Origin: Candidatus Pacearchaeota archaeon
Lineage (GTDB): Archaea; Nanobdellota; Nanobdellia; Pacearchaeales; GW2011-AR1
DNA: 60,089 bases
NCBI GenBank assembly: GCA_016181895.1
Contig: JACOYL010000014.1
Coordinates: 1-60,089, forward strand
Direction: 5' to 3'
The notes under the pieces are model-generated. The model was not told where the DNA came from and searched no databases. It worked only from the letters and a program-made list of their open reading frames with translations. Positions 5,576-55,932 of this stretch are shown one piece after another; within the stretch, counting starts at the first letter, position 1, and each line of letters begins with the position of its first letter. Position numbers and translations under genes: made by a program.

Positions 5576-5746
5576 CGCTCGCCTTCGGCTCGCTTATTAA
5601 TATGAATGATAATGTAAAGTCTAATTTTATAATTTGATGAAAGTTGTTTGGAGTTAACTCTGTTCTTTTGGAGGCGGGTGGGAAACTTTGCGAGAGAAAT
5701 TTATTAATTCAAAACCAAGCGGGTTGCGAGTTGGTGGGAAAACTTG
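5576..5746 (+). repeat. Mosaic intergenic repeat locus (head + AT units + G-rich tails)
   Basis: CGCTCGCCTTCGGCTCGCTTA head; GGAGGCGGGTGGGAAACTTTGCGAG; GGGTTGCGAGTTGGTGGGAA tail. Confidence 0.8.
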
Positions 5747-5747
5747 A

Positions 5748-6179
5748 TTATTCCTCGTATTCTTTCTTAATTATAAATTCGCCGAAATTTCCAAAACGTC
5801 CAAATTCTGCTTTCTCATATGCTTGAGCTAATCTAAGTGCTTCATCTAAATATTTTGGATCCTTTACATATATAAATCCTTCATAATGGGTTGTAATTTT
5901 TATTTTTCCGAAAGAAAATAAATGTCCTTTTATAAAAATTTCTCTACAAAAGTCAGGATAGGGCCCATCATTGGATAATCCATCAGGACCATAGCTTGTT
6001 GTTGAAGCCATAATCATTCTAGATCCTCCAACTATATTGCGAGTAATTCTAACAAATTCTTTTTGTTTTTTAATATCTTTTAGTCTTCCTTCTTTCCATT
6101 TTTCATCCGCTCTAATTTTACGAACTTCTTCCTCCGCCAATCCTTCAAGTTTTACCATCATTAAATTCTCAAAATACAT
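5748..6179 (-). CDS. Hypothetical protein
   Basis: 143-aa ORF, no recognised motif. Confidence 0.6.
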   Translation of the reverse strand: MYFENLMMVKLEGLAEEEVRKIRADEKWKEGRLKDIKKQKEFVRITRNIVGGSRMIMASTTSYGPDGLSNDGPYPDFCREIFIKGHLFSFGKIKITTHYEGFIYVKDPKYLDEALRLAQAYEKAEFGRFGNFGEFIIKKEYEE

Positions 6180-6207
6180 TTATAAACTCTTTCTTTGATT
6201 TCTTTTC

Positions 6208-6618
6208 ATGAGCGAATACGAAAAACTTCTCGATGAAGCATACAAAAAAGTAAAGCAAGTGGCTTCTTCCAGCGAGAGATTTGAAATCCCGAAAGTCGAG
6301 GGGCATTTCGAGGGGAAGAAAACAATAGTGAGTAATTTTTTCCATATTGCAGAACACATAAGAAGAAACCCGGAGCATTTTCAAAAATTCATTCTCAGGG
6401 AATTGGCTGCTTCAGGACAAAGAGAATCCGATAGGCTGGTTTTGAACAACAAAATCCCGAGCGAAAAAATAAATCAGAAGATAGAACAATACATGAAGGA
6501 ATTCGTGATTTGCAGGGAATGCGGAAAGCCCGACACTGAATTAATCAGGGAAGACAGGTTGACGTTCATAAAATGTTCGGCGTGCGGAGCGAGGCACAGC
6601 GTTAGGGGAAAGATTTAA
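6208..6618 (+). CDS. eif2b: Translation initiation factor aIF-2 beta
   Basis: ERFEIP...NF..IA..IRR.PEH; Zn ribbon CRECGKPDT...CSACGA. Confidence 0.96.
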   Translation: MSEYEKLLDEAYKKVKQVASSSERFEIPKVEGHFEGKKTIVSNFFHIAEHIRRNPEHFQKFILRELAASGQRESDRLVLNNKIPSEKINQKIEQYMKEFVICRECGKPDTELIREDRLTFIKCSACGARHSVRGKI

Positions 6619-6971
6619 ATTCCCCTCAAATATTCTATGCAAAGTCTATCATATTTGCATCTTGAATCTATCGCGTCGTCGTTGTAATCAAATCGTCCAT
6701 TGACGAGCTTTTCAAAAATATCTTTGGACAATCTTATAACCCAAAATTGTTTTCCTCTGTAATCATAAGGAGAAATATTTTCAGGATATCTTCTTATATT
6801 TATTCCAGGCTCACAACTATGTCCAACGGAAATTTTTCTGTCAACAACGCTTATTCTTAAAACTCCATTGATGTTTGAAAAATCAAAATCAGAATATCCA
6901 TTTTCCCGAATAAATTTCACATCTCTTTCAAGAAGAGATATGTTTGGTCCATTGCTAAAAAATGCCCTCAT
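6615..6971 (-). CDS. Hypothetical protein
   Basis: 118-aa ORF, co-oriented with the next orphan. Confidence 0.55.
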   Translation of the reverse strand: MRAFFSNGPNISLLERDVKFIRENGYSDFDFSNINGVLRISVVDRKISVGHSCEPGINIRRYPENISPYDYRGKQFWVIRLSKDIFEKLVNGRFDYNDDAIDSRCKYDRLCIEYLRGI

Positions 6972-6976
6972 AGAAT

Positions 6977-7255
6977 TTAATTCCTGTATCCTTCCATAAA
7001 TTCCTGATTTAATGTCTTGGTCAAAATCGCGGGAAAATTATCCTCTGTTATTTCCTGCAAATCTTTTATTGATTTTCTGGCTTCCTCCATTGAAGAACCC
7101 CGATATCTCACATCAAGGATTCCTTTTTCTAATCTTCCATATATCTTCATACTTTCAGAAATATTTTCTTTCGGATTAAAAGAAATAATTGCTCCATAAG
7201 TTCTCGTTCCTTCATTGTTTCTTCCAAATGCAAGAGCAATATAAATTTCTGCCAT
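6977..7255 (-). CDS. Hypothetical protein
   Basis: ATG at 7255 about 22 nt downstream of a TATA-like box. Confidence 0.6.
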   Translation of the reverse strand: MAEIYIALAFGRNNEGTRTYGAIISFNPKENISESMKIYGRLEKGILDVRYRGSSMEEARKSIKDLQEITEDNFPAILTKTLNQEFMEGYRN

Positions 7256-7368
7256 AAAAATACCAATCAATTCCCCTTAAATAAATTTCCGTGATTTTTG
7301 AACAAAACAAATCTTTAAAAACGAATTTTAACTTATATTAAATCTTAAATCCGAAAGGAGGTATCAAA

Positions 7369-7536
7369 ATGGCTTTAGAAGGAAGATGCATGAGGTGCAA
7401 AACCAACAGAGAAATGAAGAGCTTGAGATTGGAAAAGACAAAGAGGGGAACTTATTTGGCTCGTGGAATTTGCACAAAGTGCGGAACAAAAATGGCTAAG
7501 ATTTTGTCTGTAGAGCAGGCTCAGAAATACAAATAA
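7369..7536 (+). CDS. Small Zn-ribbon protein (DUF5679-like), 55 aa, absent from the ORF track
   Basis: MALEGRCMRCKTNREMK...ARGICTKCGTKMAKIL; strong SD AAAGGAGGT upstream. Confidence 0.85.
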   Translation: MALEGRCMRCKTNREMKSLRLEKTKRGTYLARGICTKCGTKMAKILSVEQAQKYK

Positions 7537-7573
7537 TCTGAGAATTTAAAAAGTAAGATTAAATCAATCTTAC

Positions 7574-7801
7574 ATGTTTATAAAAATACACAAGTCTTAC
7601 AGGAATGTTGTCGCGGTTTGCGATTCCGAATTGATCGGGAAAAAATTCGAGGAGGAAAAATTCCAGCTTGATGTGAAGGAGAATTTTTTCAAGGGCGACA
7701 AAGTCTCTGAAAATGAAGCCATTTTGATAATGAAAAAAATGTTGGTTGAAGATGCGACATATCCTTTTTTATGCCTAAATTTAAAATTAAGGGTTTTGTG
7801 A
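7574..7801 (+). pseudogene. DUF424 family protein, C-terminally truncated
   Basis: IKIHKSYRNVVAVCDSELIGKKFEE...ENFFKG matches DUF424; similarity stops at EDAT (about 7760), without the usual N.VG...GIP C-terminal third. Confidence 0.7.
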
Positions 7802-8478
7802 TTGAAGAATTACCTGAATTAGAAATTGAAGCAGAAGATAGAGAAAAAGCCGAAGGGATATATGAAGATAAATATTATGATGATGAAATAGAAGGAGATT
7901 TAGAAGTTCAATTTGAAAAGGAAGATGAAGAATATGATGGAACACCACGAATTATAGAAATTAATGGAAAAAATTATCCCCAAGATATTTTAGGTATAAG
8001 TGAATCTCCTCTTGAAGAAAGCAAGATATATAATATAAAAGACGAAAATTTACCAGATAAGATATGGGACAATATTGAATACTCTATTTATTATCAACAG
8101 CGAGGATATAGGATTATTGAAGGAGGTAACACTAAAACAGATAACGCTATGAATATGCTTTATCAGAAAATTAAAAAAGCCGAATTTTGTATTGATTGTA
8201 AAATTGAATTGACTGATTTTGATTTAGAAAAAGTAAAGAGAGAAAGTAGATGTCTTAAATGTCAATCGGTTATTTGGGCTGAGGAAAGGAAAGAACTTAA
8301 AGACAAAGCAGAAAAGATTGCATTAGAAATATCAAAGATTAGTGAATTTATCAAATTACCAAATATTCCAACAAAAAGGATTTGGATTGAAAATAAGTAT
8401 CCAGAACTTAAATCAAGAAGTAGAATGATTGTAGATAAAGCAAATAATTTAATTTATTTAGCTAAATCTCAATTATAA
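7771..8478 (+). CDS. Hypothetical acidic protein with CxxC..CxxC pair
   Basis: Very AT-rich; CIDC and CLKC; overlaps the truncated DUF424 gene. Confidence 0.65.
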   Translation: MPKFKIKGFVIEELPELEIEAEDREKAEGIYEDKYYDDEIEGDLEVQFEKEDEEYDGTPRIIEINGKNYPQDILGISESPLEESKIYNIKDENLPDKIWDNIEYSIYYQQRGYRIIEGGNTKTDNAMNMLYQKIKKAEFCIDCKIELTDFDLEKVKRESRCLKCQSVIWAEERKELKDKAEKIALEISKISEFIKLPNIPTKRIWIENKYPELKSRSRMIVDKANNLIYLAKSQL

Positions 8479-8520
8479 ATCCACACCAACTTTTATAAAC
8501 AAATTTTTTCTTCCATATTA

Positions 8521-8856
8521 ATGTCCTATAATTTCAAAAATAAAAACAATTCCGATGAGGAAGAGCAAAAAGTCTCCCGCGCGCCCTTGCCGAGAAAAAA
8601 TGAAGTCATCGGAATTTTGGACCAAAGACTCGGGGGAAACAAGATGATGGTTAGTTGTTTGGACGGGAAAAAAAGAAACTGCCGAGTCCCAGGCAGATTG
8701 AAAAGAAAACTCTGGCTTCGCCCAAATGACGTCGTGATTGTCGAGCCATGGGAACTTGATTTCAACAAAGGAGACATAATTTTCAAATATCGTCCGAATC
8801 AAATTGAATGGCTGAAACAGAATGGATATCTGAAAACGGAAACCGGAGGGTTTTAA
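8521..8856 (+). CDS. eif1a: Translation initiation factor aIF-1A
   Basis: LGGNKMMVSCLDGKKRNCRVPGRLKRKLWLRPNDVVIVEPW. Confidence 0.97.
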   Translation: MSYNFKNKNNSDEEEQKVSRAPLPRKNEVIGILDQRLGGNKMMVSCLDGKKRNCRVPGRLKRKLWLRPNDVVIVEPWELDFNKGDIIFKYRPNQIEWLKQNGYLKTETGGF

Positions 8857-8908
8857 TTATATTCTCCAGAAGAATAAATATTATAAACTAAAATAATTTA
8901 ATTAGAAG

Positions 8909-9082
8909 ATGAATAGAGGCTTTTATGGATATGTTGGTAGAGATATGGAACCTTTAAAAAACAAAGAAGAAATATTATATAATCAGGTTAAAAAATTTGG
9001 GCTTTTTTCTAGGATAAAATTATATGTGATTAGTACCATTTCACAGTTCAAAAAGCAAAAAGACATTTCTTCCAGGCTTTAA
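8909..9082 (+). CDS. Small hypothetical protein (57 aa), absent from the ORF track
   Basis: MNRGFYGYVGRDMEPLKNKEE...; TTTATAAA box about 22 nt upstream. Confidence 0.45.
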   Translation: MNRGFYGYVGRDMEPLKNKEEILYNQVKKFGLFSRIKLYVISTISQFKKQKDISSRL

Positions 9083-9093
9083 TCAAAAACTTT

Positions 9094-9405
9094 TTAACTT
9101 AAAGAGTAAAAAGTATTTCTGCTTCCGGCAGGAATAAAAGAAGGCAAAGGCATGTTATATAGATAAGGAACTTGAATTCTAACTTTTCGAGTAACCTTTC
9201 CTGATCGTCTCAATTCAGCCAAGGCATAAGGAATCTTTATTTTTAATGCAAGATGAATCAGAGAGTTCGGATCATAACCCCTAAGAATTTCATTTGTTAT
9301 ATCAAACGAGTTTATCTCTTCTCTTTCTTTAAGTAATTTCGTAATGTCTGTTTTACATCCCTCAAACATTTCTTTTTCTCTACGAGCAAATGCTGCAGAT
9401 GGCAT
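9094..9405 (-). CDS. Hypothetical protein (possible wHTH)
   Basis: ALAELRRSGKV resembles a wHTH wing helix; TATA box upstream. Confidence 0.55.
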   Translation of the reverse strand: MPSAAFARREKEMFEGCKTDITKLLKEREEINSFDITNEILRGYDPNSLIHLALKIKIPYALAELRRSGKVTRKVRIQVPYLYNMPLPSFIPAGSRNTFYSLS

Positions 9406-9455
9406 TTCTTATAAAAGAATGAATCTTTTATAAAGATTATTGTGATTGTTTTCAT

Positions 9456-9983: not shown

Positions 9984-10009
9984 ATAACGAATTCTATTAA
10001 AATTTTTGA

Positions 10010-10152
10010 GTCCCGGTAGCTCAGACTTTTCCGAGCGCTAAAACGCGAAGAAGGGAGCAATAGGTAGAGCACATGACTGTTAAATTTATGTCCTACTTTT
10101 GGTAGGCTCCACGGAAATCATGGGGTCGTAGGTTCGAGTCCTGCCCGGGACG
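10010..10152 (+). tRNA. tRNA-Asn(GTT) with two introns (about 10025-10060 at 15/16; 10083-10116 at 37/38)
   Basis: Acceptor GTCCCGG/CCGGGAC; anticodon stem CATGA/TCATG; GTAGG-TTCGAGT-CCTGC T arm; both introns form BHB-like junctions. Confidence 0.9.
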
Positions 10153-10188
10153 TTTATCTTTTTCTCCTTACAAAATTTCCTAGAAATT

Positions 10189-10596: not shown

Positions 10597-10719
10597 ATAA
10601 AGACAACTAATATTTTCTTTATAAAATTTGTCCGCAAATTTTATTATGCAAGAACAAGAAGTTAATTTTATGTAACTTTCCTTTCAATAGAAAAAAAAGA
10701 AGTTTAAAATTATTCTAAT

Positions 10720-11508: not shown

Positions 11509-11591
11509 CCCCCAATCAAATAAAAATTAATTTATAAAAATTATGAAGATAAAAAGCAATGTTTTTTAATCATCATTTTTCAAATTTAATC

Positions 11592-12920
11592 ATGAAAACA
11601 AAACCAAAAGTCTTGGTCGCGATGTCCGGCGGCGTTGATTCCTCTGTCGCCGCCTTGATGATGAAAAATCGCGGATTCCAAATTCTTGGGGTTTTCATGA
11701 AAAACTATTCTGATTCAAAAAATGATTTTACAGGGGATTGCCTTTGGAAAGACGAACGTAGGATTGCAATGAAAATCGCAGCAAAACTTGGAATTCCCCT
11801 TATCACTTTGGATTTTGAAAAACAATACAAAAAACTCGTGATTGAAAAAATGTTCTCTGATTATAGAAAAGGAATTACCCCAAATCCAGACATTGACTGC
11901 AATCAAAAAGTGAAATTTCCTTTGTTAATCAAAGCAGCGAAAAAACTCGGCTGCGATTTCGTTGCAACAGGGCATTATGCGAGGATAAAAAAAATAGTGA
12001 CAAAGAATGATAACAATAAAATTTCTAATGTAAAAAACAAATTATTTAATAAAAATCACAAAGATTTAATCATTAATTCTCATGGGGCGGGCTGGCGGGA
12101 AGCGAAAAAGTGGAATGAAAAAAAAGTGAAATATCAACTCCTCCGCGCAACCGACGAATCAAAAGACCAGAGTTATTTTCTCTACAGATTAAAGCAAGAT
12201 GAATTGAAGCATTTGATATTTCCAATAGGAGATTACACAAAAAAACAAATAAGAGAAATAGCAAGAAAAAATCATTTCCTGAATTACGACAAAAAATCAA
12301 CAGTAGGAATTTGTTTTGTCGGAAAAGTCAACCTGAAAAAATTTCTTCAGGCTCGGATTGCACCAAAGAAGGGAAAAATCCTGAATCCTCAAGGAGAAAT
12401 CATGGGAGAGCACGACGGAATTTATTATTATACAATAGGGCAAAGAATCGGGATGAGATTTGGAATTGATGTTTCAAAAAAGCATGATGATAAAAACCTC
12501 ATGAAGCGCTGGTATGTCGCAAAAAAAGACGTAAAAAAGAATACCATCATCGCAGCGCCGGAAGGACATCCTTTAAACTACAGAAAGGAAATTTGGCTCA
12601 AAAACCAAAGTTGGATTAATGCCGATGAAATAATTAATACCAAAACAAAAAGGTTAACAAATAAACAAATCATTGATATTAATTTAAATTCTCGCGGGCG
12701 GGCGGGCGAGAATAAGACAAAAAAACAAAATGAAAATTCCAAGAAAATCCTAGCAAGAATCCGTCAAGTAGGAGAATTGCTTTCTGCAAAAATTGAAAAC
12801 AGAAGCGGAAAAATAAAAGTCATTCTCGACAAGGCAATAACAGGAATTTCAGAAGGACAGGCAATAGTTTTATATGATGGAAAAGAAGTCCTCGGCGGCG
12901 GAGAGATTAGATTTAACTGA
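11592..12920 (+). CDS. mnmA: tRNA 2-thiouridylase MnmA (bacterial type) with two in-frame insertions
   Basis: SGGVDSS, TPNPDIDCN, ATGHYAR, KDQSYFL, GICF, YTIGQR, GQAIVLY..LGGG. Confidence 0.95.
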   Translation: MKTKPKVLVAMSGGVDSSVAALMMKNRGFQILGVFMKNYSDSKNDFTGDCLWKDERRIAMKIAAKLGIPLITLDFEKQYKKLVIEKMFSDYRKGITPNPDIDCNQKVKFPLLIKAAKKLGCDFVATGHYARIKKIVTKNDNNKISNVKNKLFNKNHKDLIINSHGAGWREAKKWNEKKVKYQLLRATDESKDQSYFLYRLKQDELKHLIFPIGDYTKKQIREIARKNHFLNYDKKSTVGICFVGKVNLKKFLQARIAPKKGKILNPQGEIMGEHDGIYYYTIGQRIGMRFGIDVSKKHDDKNLMKRWYVAKKDVKKNTIIAAPEGHPLNYRKEIWLKNQSWINADEIINTKTKRLTNKQIIDINLNSRGRAGENKTKKQNENSKKILARIRQVGELLSAKIENRSGKIKVILDKAITGISEGQAIVLYDGKEVLGGGEIRFN

Positions 12921-13939: not shown

Positions 13940-14171
13940 CGAGTTAATGATAAAACTACCTATCAATTTTTAATTTTTAGAGAAAATTTCTTGAGATAAT
14001 TCTGATAAAAAATTTGTTCGATATTAATTCTTTGTTCATAGGCGGTGATAGTGAGCAAAATTCGTAGTAATTATTTAAAGAGGTTGATGTGCAATCCCAA
14101 TTTTAAAAGTTGATGAAAACTGTTTTTAGTTAAAATCAGTTCTTTGGGTGGTCGGGGGATTAGAGGCGGGG
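13940..14171 (+). repeat. Mosaic intergenic repeat locus
   Basis: GTTAATGA.., GTGAGCAAAATTCG, AAAAGTTGATGAAA, GGGTGGTCGGGGGATTAGAGGCGGGG tail; closest to 54410-54690. Confidence 0.75.
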
Positions 14172-14517: not shown

Positions 14518-14690
14518 CGCTCGCCTTTCGGCTCGCTTATTATTAATGGCTTATCATCAGCGTTCCGCACGATGCTTCGCTAATAAAAATTGTTAATCCA
14601 ATATCACTTTAACGTCTGATGCAACTCTCGAATAAACTGGAAAATTCTTCATATTAAAACTTGTTCTCTTGGGCGGAACAAATTTCCAAT
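14518..14690 (+). repeat. Mosaic repeat locus with full head
   Basis: CGCTCGCCTTTCGGCTCGC...GCGTTCCGCACGATGC; inverted homologue at 17970-18030. Confidence 0.8.
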
Positions 14691-17322: not shown

Positions 17323-17862
17323 TTAAAGATTTTCGATATTTTTCAGAATAAATGCAATCCTTTCTTCAATGGGCATTTGCGGAATTTTTATCAAATAATA
17401 TCCGAGATTCTCGTATGCTCTTGAAATTTCATCATGAATCTCCTGTTGTTCCTTTTTTGTCTCAACTCTCAGCCCGTCGGTTTTGTAAAACCTCAATGGT
17501 TCCAAAATAAATATTCCCTTGTATCTGAAACTTCTCACATAATCAAAATGTTTTTTCGGGAATTTTAATCTGTTTATTTTGTAATAAGCCAAAGAATCTC
17601 CAAATCCCCTGTCGGAAAAACCAATGTCATTATTTTTCAGCAAAAAGTCGTCCTGCAATTTAATTTGATGTTTTAAAACTTCATCTTGAAAAATCTGCCG
17701 GTTAATTTCTTTTATGGATTTTCCAATAAATCTTTTATCGCTTTCCGCGACAACTCTCGCAGCCTCGGGAATTATGTTATATTTCAATTTTCCCAATTCG
17801 TTTACAATAGTTGTTTTCCCGACGCCGGGACCTCCGGAAATCACGAAAATGTTTGTTTGCAT
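17323..17862 (-). CDS. P-loop ATPase/kinase (AAA_28, NadR-like)
   Basis: ISGGPGVGKTT, PEAAR, DRGFGD..AY, R.E; start at ATG 17862. Confidence 0.85.
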   Translation of the reverse strand: MQTNIFVISGGPGVGKTTIVNELGKLKYNIIPEAARVVAESDKRFIGKSIKEINRQIFQDEVLKHQIKLQDDFLLKNNDIGFSDRGFGDSLAYYKINRLKFPKKHFDYVRSFRYKGIFILEPLRFYKTDGLRVETKKEQQEIHDEISRAYENLGYYLIKIPQMPIEERIAFILKNIENL

Positions 17863-17879
17863 CTTTATGTTTTTTTTAT

Positions 17880-18030
17880 TTTTCTCACTCCACTCAGTTT
17901 CGCGAAGTATTACCACCAACTCAATAAATTTTAATGTATAAATATTTTTTGTATTAATTATTTTCTTTGAAGGCATCGTGCGGAACGCCGAATGCAAAAC
18001 AACATCAATGTGCGAGCCTAAAGACGAGCG
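17880..18030 (-). repeat. Mosaic repeat locus in inverted orientation
   Basis: Minus strand: CGCTCGTCTTTAGGCTCGC...GGCGTTCCGCACGATGCC...ATTAATAC..CATTAA..GAGTTGGTGGT..CTTCGCGA. Confidence 0.75.
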
Positions 18031-18038
18031 TTTAATAC

Positions 18039-19343
18039 TTATATCTTCTCAAAACATCTCGCAATCTGCAACATTTTTTGCTCTTGAAACTTGTCGCAGA
18101 TTATCTGCATGCCGACGGGAATTCCTTGAATTTCCCCCGCGGGAATTGATACTGCGCAATTTCCGGCAAGGTTTGCCGGAATCGTAAGAGCATCATAATG
18201 ATACATTTCCTCGACGGAAATCTTAGTTCCGATTTTATGCGGCAATTTAGGAACAGTCGGAGAAATCAGGCAATCAATGCTCTTGAAAATATTTTCAAAT
18301 TCTTTCTCGACAAGTTTCTTTATTTTTAATGCCTTGTCATAATATCTTCCATGATATTCTGCTTTGCTTATTTCCGAACCTCCCAAAATTCTTCTCAATG
18401 CTTCAGGTCCTGCGGAATCTTCTATTTTTTTCCCGTATCTTCTTCCGTCAAATCTTCTTGTTCCAGAAAAAAACTCAACGTAAACCAAGGGATAATATGT
18501 TTCAACAGCCAAATCCAAAATACTAAGTTTTATTTTTTTTGTTTTCCACCCATATTTAGCAACTGCCTCATTGGTTTTTAATTCAATCAAATTTTCTATG
18601 CTCTCGTCTCCGACTGGAAAATCCAAAATCCCGATTGTCAAATTTTTGGGAACTTTTTCAATCTCGTTAAAATTAATTTTTTCAGTTCTTTCCATTATCC
18701 CATCTTTTTCGCTTTTTTCTCTTATTACATCAAGAAGCAAACCCGCATCTGGGATATTTTTTGCAAAAACTCCAATCTGGTCCAAACTCATTGACAAATC
18801 AATTAATCCATATCTTGATACGCTTCCATAACTTGGTTTTATTCCAATAACTCCGCAGTGCGACGCGGGATTTCTAACGCTTCCTCCTGTTTCAGAGCCG
18901 AGAGCCATGTCGCAAAAATCCGCAGAAACAGCGGCGGCACTTCCAGAAGAACTTCCGCCGGGAATTAGGCTTGGATTTCTAGGATTTCTCGTCGGTCCGA
19001 AAGCCGAAGTTTCTCCACTGCTCCCAGAAGCAAACTCGTCCATGTTTGTCATTCCTATAATCAATCCGTCTTCATCTTTTATTTTTTGAATTGCATAGGC
19101 ATCGTAAGTTGCCTTGTAGTTCTCAAGAGTTTTACTTGCACAGGAAGCATTCAATCCCTTGACATTTATATTGGATTTTACCGCAATGATTTTTCCCGCG
19201 AGTTTTCCCTTTTGTCTTTTTCCGTCAATTGCTTTTGCTTCCTGCAAAGCATTTGGATTCAACTGCAAAAATGCATTTATCTTTCCGTCTTCCTTTTTGA
19301 TTTTGTCAAGATATTTTTGCAGGGATTGGAGCGTTGATGTCAT
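18039..19343 (-). CDS. gatA: Asp/Glu-tRNA amidotransferase subunit A
   Basis: Amidase signature PGGSSSGSAAAV, GSETGGSVRNPA, KPSYG.VSRYG, RRILGG. Confidence 0.96.
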   Translation of the reverse strand: MTSTLQSLQKYLDKIKKEDGKINAFLQLNPNALQEAKAIDGKRQKGKLAGKIIAVKSNINVKGLNASCASKTLENYKATYDAYAIQKIKDEDGLIIGMTNMDEFASGSSGETSAFGPTRNPRNPSLIPGGSSSGSAAAVSADFCDMALGSETGGSVRNPASHCGVIGIKPSYGSVSRYGLIDLSMSLDQIGVFAKNIPDAGLLLDVIREKSEKDGIMERTEKINFNEIEKVPKNLTIGILDFPVGDESIENLIELKTNEAVAKYGWKTKKIKLSILDLAVETYYPLVYVEFFSGTRRFDGRRYGKKIEDSAGPEALRRILGGSEISKAEYHGRYYDKALKIKKLVEKEFENIFKSIDCLISPTVPKLPHKIGTKISVEEMYHYDALTIPANLAGNCAVSIPAGEIQGIPVGMQIICDKFQEQKMLQIARCFEKI

Positions 19344-30445: not shown

Positions 30446-30479
30446 TTGAAGATCTTGTTGTGGAAAAATCAAAAGAGAT

Positions 30480-30765
30480 TTTATCATTAACATTTGGTTT
30501 AGGGTGGGCGGTAAGCAAATTCATGAAAAAAATTGATATAGGAAAAGATTAATGCTAAAATTTTATCGTGAGTAAATAACTTATGAAACTCGGTTTTTAC
30601 ATTAACACTTTGTTTTTGGGGTGGGCGAACGCTTTGATTTTGACTATCTTTAAAATTAACAACAAAATCGGGGCGTGAGTAGGGTTGGGGCAAATTAATT
30701 AAAAGAAAAAATTCACAAACGAGTGGGGTCGCGAGTTGTCGGGGGATTGGTGGTGGGGCGATTAA
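30480..30765 (+). repeat. Mosaic repeat locus (at least four units)
   Basis: GGAAAAGATTAATGCTAAAA...TTTTACATTAAC...GGGGTGGGCGAACGC; tail GTCGGGGGATTGGTGGTGGGG. Confidence 0.85.
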
Positions 30766-30784
30766 AATTTATTCAAGAATTTTC

Positions 30785-32498: not shown

Positions 32499-32589
32499 GT
32501 CGGAAAGTATATATTTTCCTTTTTAAAAATTATTGTGATGAAATTTTATTTGTCATTAGCATGGATTTTTAAGGATTGTTATAGTGAAA

Positions 32590-32661: not shown

Positions 32662-32799
32662 ATGAAGATAAAACAAAATTTGTGCTTATTTAATTTTCCG
32701 TTCAAGAGATTGTCGCATAATCGGGAGGTAATAGAAATTTACCGATGAGAAAAATTAAACAACTCCCGTAGATTAGACATCCCCTCCGTTCAAAAACAT

Positions 32800-33085
32800 G
32801 CTCGCCTTCTACTCGTACCACGACTTTATATTAATAAAAATAAATTTGTCAAAGTCAAAACACTCGGCTCGCTTAGATTAATGTAAAATCTGCTCATAAG
32901 TTGATAAAAGTTGTAAAAGATGGTTAACGATTAAAATTGGATTTTTAGGGGCGGGCGAGCAAGATTGCGAGTGAAATTGATATTCAATGGGAAAAGATTA
33001 ATGCGAAAATTTTATCGTTGGTAAATAATTAATGAAATTTGGTTTTTACATTAACACTTGTTTTTATGGGTGGGTGGGAACAAAT
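32800..33085 (+). repeat. Mosaic repeat locus; head split by an inverted unit
   Basis: GCTCGCCTTC [inverted unit] TCGGCTCGCTTA; unit at 32990-33075 closely matches 30541-30627. Confidence 0.85.
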
Positions 33086-39454: not shown

Positions 39455-39860
39455 AAATTCTCCATTAAAACTCGGTTTTTGAATGGGAGAGCAATTTCAC
39501 GAGTGAAATTGATATCCGACGGGAAAAGATTAATGCAAAATATTTATCGTCAGTCAATGGTTTCACAAGACGCAAATGGTTTATCATTAACTTTGGCTTG
39601 GTTTCTGGGGTGGGCGAACGCTTTGATTTTTAGTATCTTTAAAATTAATAATAAAGTCGGGCCGTGAGGAGAGCAACTTCGCGGGACAAATTTATTTTGG
39701 TTAGGTTAACGTGCAAAAGTTCCTTATCATTAGTTCATCAATTTCTCAAAATCGGATTTGCCATTAGCATGGATTTTTAAGGGTGGGAGAGCAATTTCGT
39801 GGCAGGTAGTATAATTAAGACATCAATAAGCTGTATGAGATTGCGAGTGGGTGGGAATAA
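39455..39860 (+). repeat. Mosaic repeat locus (longest, about five units)
   Basis: Shares units with 30540-30680, 32960-33020 and 55720-55910. Confidence 0.85.
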
Positions 39861-39867
39861 AATAAAT

Positions 39868-40854
39868 TTACTTCGCAAAAGTTTCCGCTACTAAAAGTGG
39901 AAAAATCATTGTAGCATCGCCAAAAATCTTGACGGCTTTTCCTTGGGGTTTAATTTTTCCCCATGAAACAGCCTCGTCTGGATTTGCTCCGGCGTCGCTT
40001 CCGTCGAATTCCTGCGAATTGTTTACAAAAACAGCAAAGTCCGCGCCGTTCCTGTATAGGTGGGCATTAAGGATGCTGTGTTTTACCGTTCCCGTTCCAA
40101 GAACAATCAATCCTGATTTCCTCAATCCGGATGTTTCATCATTGAGCATTTTCATTTCGTTTGAAATGTCAATCAAAAAATCCTCGTGTTTCGACTTGAA
40201 AAAATAAACCATGTCCCCGAAACTTCCGTCGAGAATCGCATAACTGTAAACTCGGATTTGATTTTTCCATGCCCAGTAATAAATGCTTTTTTCATTGTTG
40301 ATTTTTTCCCCGAGTTTCCAAATCAAGTCGCTCGGCGTGAATATTTTTCCGGTTTTCTTCTGTTCTTCATAACACTCTTCCAGAACAGGCATCACGAATT
40401 CTTCGAATTTTATGTATCTTGAATTCGGCACAAAAATGTTTCCTATCCTGTTTATTGCTTTTTCCCTCAATTTTTTCCCCTCTGCCTTGAAATCTCCGAG
40501 AACAAAATTCCCGAGGCATTTTATCATGTCTTCCTCAATCCCCCCTCCGGTAGTCACAAGAACATCAACCTTTTTCTTTTCGACAAGGAATCTTATCACG
40601 TCCCTCAATCCCGAACTGATAATATTTGACGTGAAGCCGAGAAAGATTTTTGATTTTTCAGAAATCATTTCATTTATTATTTCAACGGCTTTTGAAAAAT
40701 GCGACGCCTGAAATCCGGTGCTTCCGAAACTTTCCACTATCTTCTTAAAATCATTTCCCTTGCTGAAATCATATCCTTCTATGTTTTTTCCGGAAATCTC
40801 GGAGGATTTTTTCAGGATGAATTCTTTCGGATTTTCAGATATTTTATTTTTCAT
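39868..40854 (-). CDS. dys: Deoxyhypusine synthase
   Basis: GFQAS, SSGLRD, GGIEED, INRIGN, DGSDAGA.PDEAVSWGK. Confidence 0.95.
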   Translation of the reverse strand: MKNKISENPKEFILKKSSEISGKNIEGYDFSKGNDFKKIVESFGSTGFQASHFSKAVEIINEMISEKSKIFLGFTSNIISSGLRDVIRFLVEKKKVDVLVTTGGGIEEDMIKCLGNFVLGDFKAEGKKLREKAINRIGNIFVPNSRYIKFEEFVMPVLEECYEEQKKTGKIFTPSDLIWKLGEKINNEKSIYYWAWKNQIRVYSYAILDGSFGDMVYFFKSKHEDFLIDISNEMKMLNDETSGLRKSGLIVLGTGTVKHSILNAHLYRNGADFAVFVNNSQEFDGSDAGANPDEAVSWGKIKPQGKAVKIFGDATMIFPLLVAETFAK

Positions 40855-44836: not shown

Positions 44837-45225
44837 TCGGCTCGCTGAAATTGGCTTATTCTATGAACTCGCATTTCTGTATAAATGATGATGAAAAATT
44901 TTAATGTAAAAAATTTATCTTCGGTTAATAGTTGCACAAAACATTAAAGATTTTTATGGTTAATATTGGTTTCTTTAATTAGGAAATTTGTGAAAAAAGA
45001 TTAATGTAAAATTCAGCATTAAATTACCATGATAAAATTTATTTGATAGTTAAATGGATTGCTGGGGTGGGAGAGCAACTTTGCGAAAATTATTTGAAAA
45101 AGGCTAATGTGCAAAATTCTTTACGGATGATTAATAATTGCTAATTGTTTTGTCATTTAACTTTTTTAGGGGGTGAGTGGTTGGGGGATTGGCGGCGGGG
45201 CGAATTGATTTGCAAATTAATGTAT
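44837..45225 (+). repeat. Mosaic repeat locus
   Basis: TCGGCTCGCT head remnant; three TAATGT units; GGGGTGGGAGAGCAACTTTGCGA; GTTGGGGGATTGGCGGCGGGG tail. Confidence 0.8.
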
Positions 45226-48499: not shown

Positions 48500-48690
48500 A
48501 AATATTAATGTACAATCCCCTTATAAAAGTTGATTGATAGTTAACCTTGTTTTTTAGGAGCAAACAACTTCATAAGAATAATCTGAAAGGGATTAATGTG
48601 AAAAAGATTTAGAGTCGTTTAATAGTTGCACAAAGGTTAAATTTTTTATATTAATATCGAGTGGGGTTGCGAGGAGGGTGGGAAAAAATT
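48500..48690 (+). repeat. Mosaic repeat locus
   Basis: ATTAATGT.., GATTAATGTG..AATAGTTGCACAAA.., GGGGTTGCGAGGAGGGTGGGA tail. Confidence 0.75.
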
Positions 48691-51168: not shown

Positions 51169-51220
51169 GATAAGAAAACCAATCAGCAACTTTTAAATAT
51201 TATCTTTGTTTATTTTTAAA

Positions 51221-51739
51221 ATGGAAAAAATCCAGGCTTATTTCCTTGGGCAAAACATTCAGAGCAATTCCTCGGAAGCCTTCTCGTTGTATGAAAAAAG
51301 CCATTTCGGCGAGAGGACAGAGGGAAAAATAAGATATTCTTTTTCAGAGGCTCTTTTTCTTGTGCAAAAGGGAAAAATGGAAATCCTTTCAAAAAACAGG
51401 AAAATTTTGCACAAGGACTTGATGAAAAAAATCCAAAAATTCGACAAGAGAATCCAGATAAAATATCCTGTCTTCAGGGATTTGAGGGAAAAGGGATATG
51501 TCGTCAAAACAGCATTGAAATTCGGAGCTGATTTCCGCGTTTATGAAAAGGGAAAGAAAATTTCAGAGGTTCACGCAAAATGGGTTGTTTTCTGCGACAG
51601 CGAAACGCAAAAATTGACGTGGCATGAATTCTCTGCGAAAAATCGCGTCGCTCACTCAACGAAAAAAAACCTTCTTCTCGCGATTGTCGACGAGGAAAAC
51701 GACGTGACTTACTATGAAGTCAAGTGGATTAAGCCTTGA
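51221..51739 (+). CDS. endA: tRNA splicing endonuclease (single-unit form)
   Basis: DLREKGY.VKTALKFGADFRVY, H, RVAHSTKK, VTYYEV.W. Confidence 0.95.
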   Translation: MEKIQAYFLGQNIQSNSSEAFSLYEKSHFGERTEGKIRYSFSEALFLVQKGKMEILSKNRKILHKDLMKKIQKFDKRIQIKYPVFRDLREKGYVVKTALKFGADFRVYEKGKKISEVHAKWVVFCDSETQKLTWHEFSAKNRVAHSTKKNLLLAIVDEENDVTYYEVKWIKP

Positions 51740-51789
51740 AATAAATGATTCTAAATCTTTGAACTCGGAAAAAGATGCTCTTCTAAAAA

Positions 51790-51942
51790 AGGATAGTCGC
51801 AAAATAATTTACAAGTTGATTAAATCGGTTTTGACATTAATAGCCGTCTTCGGGGTGGGCGAGCAACTTGACTTTGACAATCTTAAAATTATTAATAATA
51901 AAGTCTGGTTGCGAGTTGGTCGGGGGATTGGTGGTGGGGAAG
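51790..51942 (+). repeat. Mosaic repeat locus
   Basis: CATTAA..GGGGTGGGCGAGCAACTTGACTTTGACAATCTTAAAATTATTAATAATAAAGTC..GGTCGGGGATTGGTGGTGGGG. Confidence 0.85.
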
Positions 51943-51986
51943 CAAAACACACTAAAATTTATAATCCTCTTCTTTCTCTTTCACTC

Positions 51987-52892
51987 ATGGCTCAAAGGAA
52001 CGCGCTTGAGATAAAAGAAAAGATACTTTCCATCTTCAAGGCCAGGGGCCCAAGCCTTCCCGTCCATATTGCAAAAGAAACCGATTTGAGCATTCTCTTC
52101 GCCTCTGCTTTTCTTTCCGAACTTATTGCCGAAAAAAAAATGAAATACAGCATCATGAAAATCGGCAGTTCCCCCCTGTATTTTCTTCCCGGCCAGGAAA
52201 ACATGCTGGAAAACTTCTCGGAACATTTGAAAGGCAGGGAGAAAGAAGCATTCAATCTTATCAAGGAAAAAAAATTTCTCAAAGATTCCGATACAGAGCC
52301 GGCGATAAGGGTTGCATTGAGGGAAATAAAAGATTTCGCCATTCCGTTCAGGATTGACGACGAGGTTTATTGGAGGTATCTTACTGCCGAAGAATCAGAG
52401 TTCATAGAAACAAAATTCAAGGAAACGGGAAAGCCGAAAATGTTTCACAAAGTCCAGGTTGTTGAAAAGCAGCAAAAACCGGTTGAAGCAAAGGAAGAAA
52501 TGCAAAAAGAGTTGTTTGAAGAAAAAGAGGAAAAAAAGCAGGCAAAGCCGAAGGCGAAAAAAATCCCTTCAAAAAGAAAAAAATCAAGGGAAAATGAAAA
52601 GTTCCTTGAAATGGTAAAGGAATTTCTTGCAAAATCCTCGATTGAAATAATAAGCATCGAGGGATTCAAAAAAGACGAGCTTATTCTCAAAGTCAAAATC
52701 AATGGAGACGAACAATTGCTGGCTGCCTACAACAAAAAGAAAATTTCCGAGAAAGACATAATAAAAGCCGCGAAAAAAGCCGCGGAACAAAATCTGAAAT
52801 ACTCGATTCTCTCCCTGGGAGAATTGCCGAAAAAAATTTCTGATTTGATAGAAGCCCTTAAAGACATAAAGGAAATAGAAAAAATCGAATGA
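51987..52892 (+). CDS. Hypothetical protein with N-terminal wHTH
   Basis: GPSLPVHIAK..LSILFASAFLSEL; start chosen at ATG 51987 after TTTATAA box. Confidence 0.75.
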   Translation: MAQRNALEIKEKILSIFKARGPSLPVHIAKETDLSILFASAFLSELIAEKKMKYSIMKIGSSPLYFLPGQENMLENFSEHLKGREKEAFNLIKEKKFLKDSDTEPAIRVALREIKDFAIPFRIDDEVYWRYLTAEESEFIETKFKETGKPKMFHKVQVVEKQQKPVEAKEEMQKELFEEKEEKKQAKPKAKKIPSKRKKSRENEKFLEMVKEFLAKSSIEIISIEGFKKDELILKVKINGDEQLLAAYNKKKISEKDIIKAAKKAAEQNLKYSILSLGELPKKISDLIEALKDIKEIEKIE

Positions 52893-52914
52893 AAATGAAA
52901 AGTTTTAGTGTAAT

Positions 52915-53006
52915 TAAAAGGTTAATGTAAAAAATTTATCGGGTTGGTTGATAGTTGAACAAAGCATTAAAGTTGTTTATTATTAAAATCTGTTTTTAGG
53001 GGGGAA
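52915..53006 (+). repeat. Single unit of the mosaic repeat
   Basis: GTTAATGTAAAAAATTTATC..ATAGTTGAACAAAGCATTAAAG..TTTTTAGGGGG; matches 44900-44960. Confidence 0.7.
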
Positions 53007-53056
53007 AGAAATTAATTAATAAAAACTCTTAAAAACTACCTTTTTTATGATTAATC

Positions 53057-53263
53057 ATGGGAAAGATAAAATCAAAATCAATAAGAAGAACGGCGAATGA
53101 GCTTATGCAAAAAGGAATGGTTTTCACCGAACAATTTGTGGAAAACAAGAAAATTCTCGGCAATTTTCTTCCAAGCAAAAAAATCAGGAATCAAATCGCA
53201 GGTTTGCTCGGAAAAACAGTGAAGAGGAACAGGCTTCATGAATTGAAACTTCTGAAAAAGTGA
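53057..53263 (+). CDS. rps17e: 30S ribosomal protein S17e
   Basis: MGKIK...F.ENKK...SKKIRNQIAG. Confidence 0.93.
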   Translation: MGKIKSKSIRRTANELMQKGMVFTEQFVENKKILGNFLPSKKIRNQIAGLLGKTVKRNRLHELKLLKK

Positions 53264-53267
53264 TAAA

Positions 53268-53564
53268 ATGGATGACAGCGAAAAGAAAAATGACAATGTT
53301 GTTTTCATAGGAAGCAAGCCTTTCATGAATTACATAACAAGCGTCGTCATTCAGTTCACATCGAAAAATCGCGATGAAGTCATTGTCAAGGCGAGAGGGA
53401 AATGGATTTCCCGTGCTGTAGATGTTGTTGAAAGGGTGAGAAAAAGATTTCTGAAAGACAAAAACATACAAATCAAGCACGTGAGAATCGACAGCGACGA
53501 AGTTGAAAACAAGGAAGGCAAAAAAATCAACGTTTCCCTGATTGAAATAACGCTGGGGAAATGA
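53268..53564 (+). CDS. albA: Alba nucleic-acid-binding protein
   Basis: VFIGSKPFMNY, KARG..ISRAVDV, VS.IEI.L. Confidence 0.96.
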   Translation: MDDSEKKNDNVVFIGSKPFMNYITSVVIQFTSKNRDEVIVKARGKWISRAVDVVERVRKRFLKDKNIQIKHVRIDSDEVENKEGKKINVSLIEITLGK

Positions 53565-53693
53565 TATCTCTTTATGCAATTAATGATAAAAAATTTGGTT
53601 GTGTTAATATTTTTCGGTAATTCTTGCAAATTTATTCATTTAAATAAAACTTTTCATAGAAAGCTATTTAAACAATTTTTTTTTGTCTAATGA

Positions 53694-54053
53694 ATGAACA
53701 TAGGAAGAAAAATTTCCGGAGGAAAGTACATAAAAAACAGAAAGAAAAAACTCTACGAAAGACTTGGACAAAAAAAGAATGTAAAACTCGGGGACGACAA
53801 GAGAAAACACAAAAGAGTTCGGGGAGGAAGTTTGAAAACCTTTTTGCTCAAGGCAAAAATCGTGAACGTTCAAATGAAGGGAAAAAGCAAAAAAGCCGAG
53901 ATAAAAAACGTCCTTGAGACGCCGTCAAACAGATTCCTTGCAAGGCAGAACATAATCACAAAAGGAACAATCGTTGAAACGGACATGGGAAAAGTCAGGA
54001 TAACAAGTCGTCCGACACAATCGGGAATTTTGAACGGGGTTTTAGTAAAGTGA
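53694..54053 (+). CDS. rps8e: 30S ribosomal protein S8e
   Basis: RK.SGG, RVRGG, NIITKG.IVET, TSRP.QSG.LNG. Confidence 0.96.
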   Translation: MNIGRKISGGKYIKNRKKKLYERLGQKKNVKLGDDKRKHKRVRGGSLKTFLLKAKIVNVQMKGKSKKAEIKNVLETPSNRFLARQNIITKGTIVETDMGKVRITSRPTQSGILNGVLVK

Positions 54054-54149
54054 ATAAAATCTACTCAAATAATCCTTCATCACGAAAAGATTTATAAACA
54101 ATTTTTTCGATAATACATCAACAAATATTCCACATATTTTGGATTTAAA

Positions 54150-54398
54150 ATGGCTACAGGAATTGAAAGACCGTTGGACTTGCTGAATAATTCTAAGCAC
54201 AAGGAAGTTCTTGTTCAATTGAAGGGCGACAAGCAATACGTCGGAACATTGCTGGCTTTTGACATTCACATAAACTTGGTTTTGGACAACACGAAGGAAA
54301 TGCAGAACAATGAAATCAAGAGAAACATCGGCTTGACTTTTTTGCGGGGCGACACGATAATATTCATCTCTCCGGCTTCGACGAGTTTAAAGAAATGA
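54150..54398 (+). CDS. Sm/Lsm-like protein (SmAP1)
   Basis: RPLDLL, G.L.AFDIHINLVL, LRGD. Confidence 0.93.
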   Translation: MATGIERPLDLLNNSKHKEVLVQLKGDKQYVGTLLAFDIHINLVLDNTKEMQNNEIKRNIGLTFLRGDTIIFISPASTSLKK

Positions 54399-54409
54399 TA
54401 TAATTTTCA

Positions 54410-54690
54410 GAAAACATCTGGCAATTATTTGAATTAGTTTAATGTGCAATTCTATTTTTAAAAGTTGATAAAAGCATTTTACAGTTAACATGGTTTTTAA
54501 AGGAGGGAGTCCGGGGGTTTGGCGGGCAACTTCGCGAGAATTACTTGAAAAAGATTAATACAAAAATTTATCACAAGTTAATATTTTATGGATTGTGAAT
54601 TTATCATTAATCCTTTTTTTGGGAGGATGGGTGGGAACTGAATTGATATGTCAAAAAAACATTGTTGCGAATTAGGGTTGGCGGGATAAT
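54410..54690 (+). repeat. Mosaic repeat locus
   Basis: TTAATGTGCAAT..AAAAGTTGATAAAA..GTTAAC; GGGGGTTTGGCGGGCAACTTCGCGAG; GGGAGGATGGGTGGGAA. Confidence 0.8.
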
Positions 54691-54719
54691 TATATAAATC
54701 TCCCTTCGTTTTCCCCTGA

Positions 54720-55613
54720 ATGATTAAACTCACATTTCTCGGAACTTCGGATTCTGTTCCAAGCGCCGAAAGAAATCATACTTCAATCCTGCTGACTTAC
54801 GAGGGAGAAAACATATTGATTGACTGCGGCGAGGGAACTCAAAGGCAATTCAGGAAACTTGGATTGAATCCCTGCAAGATAACAAAAATCCTGTTAACGC
54901 ACAGGCACGCGGACCATTCCCTTGGATTGCCGGGTTTGTTAAAGACAATGGCTCTTACAGGATACAATAAAACACTTGAAATCTATGGGCCAAATGGAAC
55001 AAAAATTTTCATGGAAAACCTGTTCAGGACATTCGGAAAAATCGAGGAATATAAAATGAATATTCATGAAGTTTCCGGCAGGTTTTTTGAAAACAAGAAT
55101 TTCTTTCTTGAAGCGGAAAGAATGACTCACGGAGTTCCGTGCAACGCCTATTTGTTTGTAAAAAAAGGACAGATAAGAATCGACAAGTCAAAATTAAAAA
55201 AATACAAATTGCCGGAAGGAATTCATTTGAGGGATTTGAAACTCGGAAAAAACATAAGATACAAAGGCAGGATTTTTAAGGCAAAGGATTTCACTTTTGT
55301 TGAAAACGGAAAAAAAATTTCATTTGTCCTCGACACTTCGGAAAATAAAAACATTGTTCCTCTTGTGAAAAATTCAGATGTATTGGTTTGCGAGGCAAGC
55401 TTCTCTTCGGACATGGAAAAAAAAGCAAGGGAATTCCATCATTTGACTTCCAAGCAAGCTGGAGAAATTGCAAAAAAGTCAAAGTCAAAAAAGCTCTTGC
55501 TGACGCATTTAAGCCAGAGATTTGAAAAAAAGAAAGAAATTATTTTGAAAGAAGCAAGAAAAATTTTCAAGAATTCTCATCTTGTGAAGGATTTGGAAGT
55601 TGTGGAGGTTTAA
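54720..55613 (+). CDS. rnz: Ribonuclease Z
   Basis: FLGTS..VP...RN, DCGEGTQRQ, THRHADH, HLT, TH.SQR. Confidence 0.96.
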   Translation: MIKLTFLGTSDSVPSAERNHTSILLTYEGENILIDCGEGTQRQFRKLGLNPCKITKILLTHRHADHSLGLPGLLKTMALTGYNKTLEIYGPNGTKIFMENLFRTFGKIEEYKMNIHEVSGRFFENKNFFLEAERMTHGVPCNAYLFVKKGQIRIDKSKLKKYKLPEGIHLRDLKLGKNIRYKGRIFKAKDFTFVENGKKISFVLDTSENKNIVPLVKNSDVLVCEASFSSDMEKKAREFHHLTSKQAGEIAKKSKSKKLLLTHLSQRFEKKKEIILKEARKIFKNSHLVKDLEVVEV

Positions 55614-55619
55614 TGAGTT

Positions 55620-55932
55620 CACGAGGAATTTAATTTACATCTAAAATATTAATGTGTAAAACCATATCTCGATTATTAATAAAAAGGTTATAGATTAATA
55701 TCGGGATTAATATCGGCTTTCTTGGGGCAGGTGAGTGATTTGACTTTGACAATCTTAAAATTATTAAGAATAAAGTCGGGTTGCGAGGAGAGCAACTTTA
55801 CGAGGGAAATTTATTGGAATTAGGTTAACATGTAAAAATTCTTTTATCATTAATTTATCAGTTTCTCAAAGTTGGATTTGTCATTAACATGAATTTCTAG
55901 GGATGGGCGGTCGTGGTGATGGTGGTGGGAAA
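55620..55932 (+). repeat. Mosaic repeat locus
   Basis: About 190 nt colinear with 39605-39790; tail GGGCGGTCGTGGTGATGGTGGTGGGAA. Confidence 0.85.

Follow-up and report, generated by a model that had tools for sequence, protein, structure and literature searches.

What kind of element fills intergenic gaps of an archaeal chromosome with non-coding repeats that nearly all face the same way relative to replication? The question arises from a 60,089-nt stretch of DNA from the Candidatus Pacearchaeota archaeon assembly GCA_016181895.1 (contig JACOYL010000014.1, positions 1 to 60,089, forward strand), referred to below as the window, which holds a dispersed family of modular repeats arranged in arrays. 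We lean towards the view that this is a genus-specific, non-autonomous, modular family of insertion elements, with a coupling between the replication fork and their insertion or survival. The orientation of the arrays is independent of neighboring genes, follows the replichore and flips at the replication origin, and modules have been gained by insertion at dispersed sites, also in frame within a conserved gene.

The window is the entire contig C23 of the assembly under study (G000: 736,044 bp in 24 contigs, 36% G+C, with an archaeal 16S gene, approximately 90% complete), and four groundwater DNA runs contain it, with no RNA run listed for it. Repeats were inventoried on all contigs of G000 with iterated nhmmer profiles, which settled on two kinds of module, a core unit (modD and modB) and a hairpin module. 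The comparison set comprised 41 genomes, a genus of 5 (G000 and its congeners G001-G004) and 36 other relatives. A same-family relative from a sister genus, G006, is represented by a 511,056-bp contig.

Inventory and anatomy of the repeats

The modD profile gave 82 matches in G000 and the modB profile 75, which merge into 86 core units grouped in 58 arrays on 14 contigs; the hairpin module, TTGACTTTGAC...AAAGTC, is present in 21 copies. These 107 modules in 0.736 Mb (approximately 145 per Mb) occupy 9,991 nt, or 1.36% of the assembly, and contigs from the four groundwater runs, three of which are possibly from the source sample, reproduce the arrays. The existence of a dispersed repeat family, proposed in a preliminary description of the window, is borne out by these profile searches. 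In BLASTN searches, 13 of the loci listed in that description yielded 274 high-scoring segment pairs (HSPs) spread over 15 contigs of G000, and the three pairwise similarities quoted there were all found: 30538-30625 with 32987-33074 (86% identity over 88 nt), 30608-30682 with 39597-39671 (88% over 75 nt), and 39586-39787 with 55706-55907 (75.6% over 205 nt, E 1e-35). Profile-detected units are present at 11 of the 14 listed loci. The locus at 5576 is a head followed by a unit-like stretch, that at 32545 is a 34-nt fragment, and those at 14518 and 17880(-) represent a head-bearing subfamily and are 71% alike between themselves. The statement that the family fills most long gaps was too strong, because it occupies 9 of 19 gaps in the window and 55 of 239 genome-wide (gaps of at least 200 nt between open reading frames, ORFs, of at least 100 aa). 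Array density is uneven, with 10 arrays on the 60-kb C23 and 1 on the 75-kb C8.

Core units are AT-rich, approximately 85-120 nt long, present in 1-3 copies per array and bracketed by TTAATG...CATTAA. Their consensus reads, 5' to 3', GAGCAACTTCGCGAG, GAAATTTATTTGAAAAAG, ATTAATGTGCAAAA, a variable stretch of approximately 45 nt, and GGATTTATCATTAACATTGGTTTTTAGGGGTGGGCGGG; no conserved reading frame was found in them. The array head is C-rich and consists either of the plain motif CGCTCGCCTTCGGCTCGCT or of the same motif with an inverted hairpin module of approximately 55 nt. GGGNGGGCGAGCAACTTCGCGAG junctions link successive units, in some cases with a forward-oriented hairpin module, and a G-rich tail closes the array, either T1 (GGGNGGGNGGGNGGGAA; also written GGGNGGGNGGGNGGGAAC) or T2 (GTCGGGGGATTGGTGGTGGGG). 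The preliminary description put the head close to the inverted junction, and motif comparison agrees: reverse-complementing the junction and tail motif yields the head motif.

In feature maps of 74 clusters, all heads lie 5' of the units and all tails 3', and many arrays are without a recognizable head. Free shuffling of modules, as first supposed, does not describe these arrays, which instead keep a head-to-tail grammar. The head motif also retrieved 27 metagenome loci, among which the unit lies downstream on the same strand in all 7 head-unit pairs within 400 nt. In none of the 74 clusters do inverted and forward hairpin modules occur together, and there are thus no doublets of the REPIN type. 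Eleven of the 18 canonical G-quadruplex (G4) motifs in G000 are located at unit ends, all with the polarity of their contig; a canonical G4 motif ends only about 11 of the 58 arrays.

The loci of the family in the window are the following:

5576-5740, + strand: array with plain head CGCTCGCCTTCGGCTCGCT, one unit-like AT-rich core, and G-rich junction and tail; the head motif is matched exactly at 5578-5594, and 25 BLAST HSPs link the locus to the genome
11990-12120, + strand: solo unit TAATGTAAAAA...ATCATTAA...GGGGCGGGCTGGCGGGAA, in frame in an MnmA-like gene (11559-12920), flanked by A8 runs; T1-like tail match at 12085-12101
12640-12715, + strand: second intragenic remnant, in the MnmA-like gene at its variable C-terminal linker, made of the 3' part of a unit and a G-rich tail
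14040-14171, + strand: array with one unit (14069-14155) and a T2-type G-rich tail
14519-14690, + strand: copy of the head-bearing subfamily, with head, GCGTTCCGCACGATGC box and AT-rich core
17850-18045, - strand: inverted copy of the head-bearing subfamily, the only minus-strand exception in the window
30470-30760, + strand: array A, with partial unit, full unit (30514-30630), forward hairpin (30619-30679) and T2 tail, between convergent genes
32541-32574, + strand: 34-nt fragment of a unit 3' end, beside a tRNA-Arg gene
32795-33085, + strand: array B, with inverted hairpin head (32812-32868, minus), two units (32875-33078) and GGGTGGGTGGGAAC tail
39455-39870, + strand: array C, with junction, unit (39489-39616), forward hairpin (39608-39668), junction, unit (39671-39792) and junction
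44838-45205, + strand: array with head remnant, units 44891-44974 and 45073-45180, and T2 tail
48500-48690, + strand: array with two cores (the second at 48565-48681) and G-rich tail
51790-51940, + strand: array E, with partial unit, forward hairpin (51853-51915) and T2 tail
52916-53010, + strand: solo unit
54423-54640, + strand: array with unit, junction, unit and T1 (GGGAGGATGGGTGGGAAC) tail
55616-55935, + strand: array with unit, forward hairpin (55725-55787), junction, unit (55790-55910) and G-rich tail, adjoining tRNA genes

The head copies at 14519 and 18030 are inverted to each other, and a composite transposon bounded by them was considered and rejected; they enclose housekeeping genes, which encode FtsZ, an MBL-fold hydrolase and an AAA ATPase.

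Orientation of the arrays and replication

Units on the same contig point almost uniformly in one direction. The strand counts in G000 (+/-) are 15/0 on C23, 0/12 on both C10 and C22, 9/0 on C20, 6/0 on C2, 0/6 on C19, 0/4 on C15 and 0/3 on C5; mixed contigs are C9 (6/1) and C1 (4/3). Among the 44 arrays that are not the first of their contig, 2 are at odds with it (binomial tail approximately 6e-11). The four possible contexts of flanking genes are evenly filled by arrays (17/15/14/12), and protein genes of G000 are co-oriented with the units in 336 cases and anti-oriented in 307. The strand bias regardless of flanking genes, noticed in the preliminary description, holds for all 15 units of the window, which lie on the + strand; the copy at 17850-18045 is the sole exception.

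G006 has a clear origin and terminus: its skews at 4-fold sites switch sharply at approximately 312 kb and 57 kb, and orc1 is located at 315,089-316,285. A total of 316 G000 proteins map onto G006 in long collinear blocks, and syntenic genes bracket 37 of the 58 arrays, which are distributed in the G006 frame as follows:

63-272 kb: 15 arrays +, 1 array -
325-402 kb: 0 arrays +, 12 arrays -
408-414 kb: 4 arrays +, 0 arrays -
439-461 kb: 0 arrays +, 3 arrays -
484-489 kb: 2 arrays +, 0 arrays -

The two replichores differ accordingly, with 15/1 and 6/15 (Fisher p 1.3e-4, a value for arrays that are not independent when they share a contig). In 30 of the 37 bracketed arrays, the G-rich strand has the sequence of the lagging strand (the leading-strand template). 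The link of the strand bias to replication, offered earlier as a possibility, is upheld by this synteny mapping, in which polarity flips at the origin. Repeats of the congener G001 flip as well: those on its C20 are all + (left replichore), and 7 of 8 on its C13, which maps to 354-410 kb, are minus. In blocks rearranged relative to G006, unit polarity follows the present contig and not the G006 position. Genus-specific rearrangements place the 142-156 kb block next to 457-466 kb and the 411-412 kb piece next to 213 kb (in G001, 411 kb next to 207 kb), and both junctions are common to G000 (C19 3907-45165, C23 53694-55613) and G001 (C3, C20).

The contigs that carry orc1 in G000 (C13) and in G001-G004 have no detectable units; therefore, the flip is not directly visible on a single contig. 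A polarity switch on C1 lies between 2680 and 15357, where the sequence is variable and has genes of the surface-protein and toxin-antitoxin-like kinds; it may correspond to a terminus, an inversion or an island.

Orientation in G000 has no relation to GC skew at 4-fold sites (difference 0.0006), and per-contig skews are at noise level; 4-fold AT skew associates weakly with unit polarity (exhaustive contig-flip fraction 0.035). The 4-fold GC and AT skews of G006 are +0.165 and -0.148 for leading-strand genes and -0.173 and +0.13 for lagging-strand genes, and the syntenic G000 genes have almost no skew (0.067 and 0.027 for leading, 0.069 and 0.054 for lagging). No large repeat family was found in G006, where self-comparison gives only families of up to 5 copies. 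The two largest of these (5 copies each; 88-94 and 371-391 kb) have opposite orientation per replichore in 10 of 10 copies.

Insertion, dispersal and lineage distribution

Empty sites, which the preliminary description had proposed to look for in close relatives, were seen for arrays A and E. For array A (30446-30784), G002 and G003 have an empty site, with 4-7 nt between the convergent genes; array E is present as the same array in G003, with compensatory hairpin changes, and its site is empty in G002. Module content of orthologous arrays varies between species: the sites orthologous to the 48500 locus in G002, G003 and G004 have units with different module content. The gap orthologous to that of array C measures 497 nt in G000, 415 in G003, 265 in G001 and 114 in G004. 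In the MnmA-like gene, the 126-nt in-frame unit adds 42 aa; it is not present in G001 or G004 and is shortened in G003. The MnmA-like ORF of G001 has a G-rich tail in frame that encodes GEGGRGIGGG (L032 3140-3190, G001:C3), and the corresponding variable linker of G004 reads RRAGGLG.

The best match of a unit lies on another contig for 77 of the 86 units, on the same contig for 9 and in its own array for none. Random expectation for these classes is 77.6, 7.6 and 0.8; therefore, the arrays did not arise by tandem duplication.

Of the 41 genomes compared, only those of this genus have the family. BLAST matches were obtained in 3 of the 4 congeners, and the 36 other relatives gave only two trivial matches; the tail motif occurs in 4 of the 5 genomes of the genus and the head motif in all 5, each in none of the 36 others. 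A scan of a genome collection found one Woesearchaeota contig with a unit, and a match in a 68%-GC bacterium was dismissed as chance. Three viral contigs match the 17-nt junction pattern; since they are GC-rich (53-62%) and have no units, these matches are considered chance as well, and a viral link was rejected.

Structure of the hairpin module

Compensatory change has preserved the hairpin module. In an alignment of 33 copies (20 from G000 and 13 from congeners), the module forms two helices in which 97.2% of 326 cells are standard pairs, compared with 88.0% in shuffles (0 of 500 as high) and 23-46% in a control with slid partners. Double-sided changes number 39 cells, compared with 12.2 in shuffles (0 of 500); they occur in 5 of the 10 pairs, and all four outer-stem pairs covary. 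The covariation check suggested with the preliminary description thus gave a strong result for this module. On the displayed strand, 21 cells are of the G-U type, so that the G-flanked strand of the hairpin is the one on which it folds best. Forward hairpins and inverted head hairpins each fold best on their own strand, thus on opposite DNA strands.

The AT-rich units gave no consensus fold with RNAalifold (fold z-scores -2.2 to +0.85), and a structured-RNA reading of them was rejected. Among Rfam 15 covariance models, only tRNAs match, whether hits are cut at gathering scores or accepted up to E 1.

Enzymes and the proposed mechanism

If the repeats are non-autonomous insertion elements, as we are inclined to think, their insertion or retention would be coupled to the replication fork, most likely through single-strand insertion that is specific for one of the two template strands at the fork. 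The catalyst would act in trans, with no gene in the assembled 90% of the genome; an enzyme of the HUH/Y1 type has the best precedent, as a candidate only. The hairpin, with its flanking CGAG and G-run motifs, would probably serve as the recognition signal. The preliminary description had also called the family non-coding and non-autonomous, which agrees with the empty sites, the in-frame insertion, the dispersal and the lack of a transposase among the families searched; autonomy does appear to be lacking. Multi-copy coding repeats resembling a transposase were not found either, the only such repeats in G000 being surface proteins, toxin-antitoxin pairs and DsbA-like genes.

Several observations weigh against this mechanism. 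Y1_Tnp, the TnpB zinc ribbon, Phage_integrase, RVT_1, DDE_Tnp_1 and rve have no match in G000, in a search of these six families only, two of them for DDE transposases, on a genome that is about 90% complete. The Y1 family (PF01797) has no match in G000, G002, G003 or G004; Y1 genes occur in 12 of the 41 relatives, G001 among them, and the two of G001 are ordinary IS200-type genes with GC-rich hairpins unlike the repeat module. No target-site rule could be derived, and the A8 flanks in the MnmA-like gene could be a duplication or simply codons for lysine. The copies are old, with best matches 80% identical on average and 93.7% at most, and contigs of the four groundwater runs contain neither excision nor presence/absence variants, nor joints that remove an array. 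The hairpins of the heads are inverted with respect to the internal ones, each folding best on its own strand. G000 is nearly without compositional skew and is assembled as 24 unordered contigs, so that the direction of the fork is read from synteny with another genus. Moreover, 7 of the 37 bracketed arrays map as leading; at least 4 of these 7 are in blocks rearranged relative to G006, a reading made post hoc. As for the HUH Y1-type mobility proposed in the preliminary description, the replication-linked bias that it would predict is present, but a Y1/HUH enzyme was not found in G000.

One Y1 gene of G001 (L032 1459-1896, G001:C3) lies between a unit-like stretch and the MnmA ortholog, and the second copy is on G001:C27.

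Comparison with known repeat systems

Several bacterial systems share parts of this organization. BOX elements of Streptococcus pneumoniae are non-coding, dispersed and built as boxA-boxB(n)-boxC, an ordered modular plan with a variable number of middle units like that seen here; their sequence is unrelated, they belong to another domain of life, and we know of no replication polarity in them. Rickettsia palindromic elements insert in frame into protein genes, as the 126-nt (42-codon) unit tolerated in a conserved enzyme gene does here; the present family is, however, mainly intergenic, with one clear and one degraded intragenic case.

In looks, the closest relatives are REP (repetitive extragenic palindromic) elements, their bacterial interspersed mosaic elements (BIMEs) and REPINs, which in bacteria are described as mobilized by REP-associated Y1 transposases (RAYTs) (PMC3333891, PMC3116915). 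Both are lineage-specific mosaics of hairpin modules and conserved linkers in extragenic arrays, with no coding capacity and hairpins in both orientations, and short imperfect-palindrome hairpin units of the REP kind are present here as the hairpin module. REP palindromes, however, are GC-rich, whereas the present arrays have mostly long AT-rich cores in fixed head-to-tail order with a G-rich tail, no REPIN doublets, no RAYT/Y1 gene found in G000, and an archaeal host. To our knowledge, replichore-wide orientation, as found here, is not a described property of BIMEs.

In its working, the family is most like the replication-coupled single-strand transposition of the insertion sequences IS200/IS605, with which it shares an orientation tied to replication direction, a structured hairpin as likely signal and no obvious target duplication. 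The literature on these sequences describes insertion and excision on the lagging-strand template, a single-strand "peel and paste" (PMC5027513). Here, in contrast, no TnpA or TnpB was found in G000, the Y1 hairpins of G001 are unrelated and the arrays are multi-modular. Both ends of IS200/IS605 act on one strand, whereas the head and internal hairpins of the present arrays lie on opposite strands, and the classical IS200/IS605 layout does not fit them. With no Y1 gene found in G000, opposite-strand hairpins and no REPIN doublets, the family does not qualify as either IS200/IS605 or REP/BIME.

High density of MITEs (transposable elements of the miniature inverted-repeat kind) has been reported in a Woesearchaeal genome (PMC11602168). 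The present elements likewise are small, non-autonomous and intergenic, at high density in a DPANN genome; they differ in having no matching transposase found, no demonstrable signature of terminal repeats plus duplication, and strict polarity. The only site resolved to the base, in the MnmA-like gene, has the A8 flanks, possibly lysine codons, and terminal inverted repeats could be seen in the mutually inverted head and junction and in the TTAATG...CATTAA brackets, yet many arrays have no recognizable head. A cognate autonomous insertion sequence with the same ends was not found in the approximately 90%-complete G000, as judged from DDE_Tnp_1, rve and multi-copy coding repeats. The supposition in the preliminary description that this is not a described archaeal family stands: Rfam gave no match and no description was found in the literature, the supplementary lists of the MITE census lying outside the search. 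These replication-polar elements of REP/BIME/MITE-like type are new as a variant.

Alternative explanations

Selection might produce the same polarity. Under this explanation, which we consider rather unlikely, MITE-type double-strand insertion would take place both ways, and purifying selection would then remove one orientation because a G4-prone tail or hairpin is harmful on the lagging-strand template. Canonical four-run G4 motifs in the tails (11 of the 18 in the genome being at unit ends), the consistent absence of the G-rich strand from the lagging-strand template, the mutual inversion of head and junction motifs, like terminal inverted repeats, and the A-run flanks of the intragenic copy, which could be a target duplication, all agree with it. 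However, orientation is near-uniform for all arrays while only about 11 of the 58 end in a canonical G4, selection alone would have to charge each copy a strong cost to make the bias so strict, one inverted copy in the window (17850-18045) and an inverted C9 array persist, and no match to the DDE transposase families searched was found. To a similar degree it seems unlikely that the modules need no transposase at all and are copied by host replication or repair at the fork, perhaps through strand-specific annealing or a template switch on one fork template, or that they are polarity marks of the cell. The specific form of the latter, in which arrays are polar chromosome elements that serve the host (with the logic of KOPS/Ter, or as G-rich fork or primer signals) and are kept because the cell reads their direction, is improbable. 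Its replichore-wide polarity with the flip at the origin, the persistence of arrays at orthologous sites in several species and the fit of polarity to the present contig even in blocks translocated relative to G006 would be expected of such signals. Against this stand the restriction to one genus among 41 relatives, the sister genus G006 that manages without a large repeat family, sites that are dispensable, being empty in congeners, with unconserved array content at orthologous sites, a very uneven density (10 arrays on C23, 1 on C8) and a unit even inside a gene.

It is more doubtful still that the units act as genes for small non-coding RNAs or as promoter/terminator cassettes, with the hairpin as an RNA element. 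Many G-U intermediates on one strand appear in the hairpin covariation, T5 runs occur on both unit strands together with TATA-like AT-rich boxes, and end hairpins of arrays face outward, as in divergent transcripts. Such genes, however, are poorly reconciled with the lack of an Rfam match even at E up to 1, the lack of a consensus fold in the AT-rich units (z-scores -2.2 to +0.85), an orientation unrelated to flanking genes in a genome whose protein genes are without replication co-orientation (336 and 307), and one unit in frame within a coding gene. Folded single-strand sites oriented relative to replication are known in chromosomal integrons (PMC5371416), and the repeats might be compared with integron attC arrays or regarded as remnants of a known insertion sequence or protein-coding gene. 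We regard both as very improbable: no tyrosine recombinase (Phage_integrase) match was found in G000, the repeats are accompanied not by gene cassettes but by housekeeping genes on both strands (FtsZ, amidase, MnmA-like), and there is neither a transposase-like multi-copy coding repeat nor a conserved reading frame in the units. A modular insertion-element family coupled to the fork is, in our judgment, the explanation that probably holds.

Neighboring features

The listed ORF 51714-52892 passes through array E for 77 codons. Since conservation in congeners begins only at approximately 51946, the part upstream is probably a spurious extension. A third tRNA-like sequence (55948-56019, - strand) adjoins tRNA-Arg(TCT) and scores 28.1 bits, compared with the Rfam gathering score of 29; ARAGORN made no call there.

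Elsewhere in G000, toxin-antitoxin-like paralogous two-gene loci are located at C5 4995-5494, C10 6656-7163 and C11 2274-2793, with DNA identity of approximately 61-65%. Two secreted or surface proteins of approximately 976 aa, rich in N-x-S/T and with mutually matching internal repeats, are encoded at C9 1-3857 and C22 12232-15159. Phage_integrase, the Xer-type tyrosine recombinase family unmatched in the approximately 90%-complete G000, is present in 14 of 14 control genomes.

Meaning for archaeal genomes

Replication-oriented insertion is already well documented for bacterial IS200/IS605, and the literature search turned up no archaeal repeat family described as replichore-polar. The spread of approximately 100 structured modules, one of them inside an enzyme gene, in a 0.7-Mb symbiont in which no recognizable transposase was found raises the question of how this was achieved. 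The G-quadruplex-type tails, kept on a fixed replication strand, offer a natural system for conflicts between DNA structure and replication in archaea. Moreover, these repeats mark replication direction despite a near-absent skew, and could be used to orient contigs and to locate origins and termini in DPANN metagenome bins.

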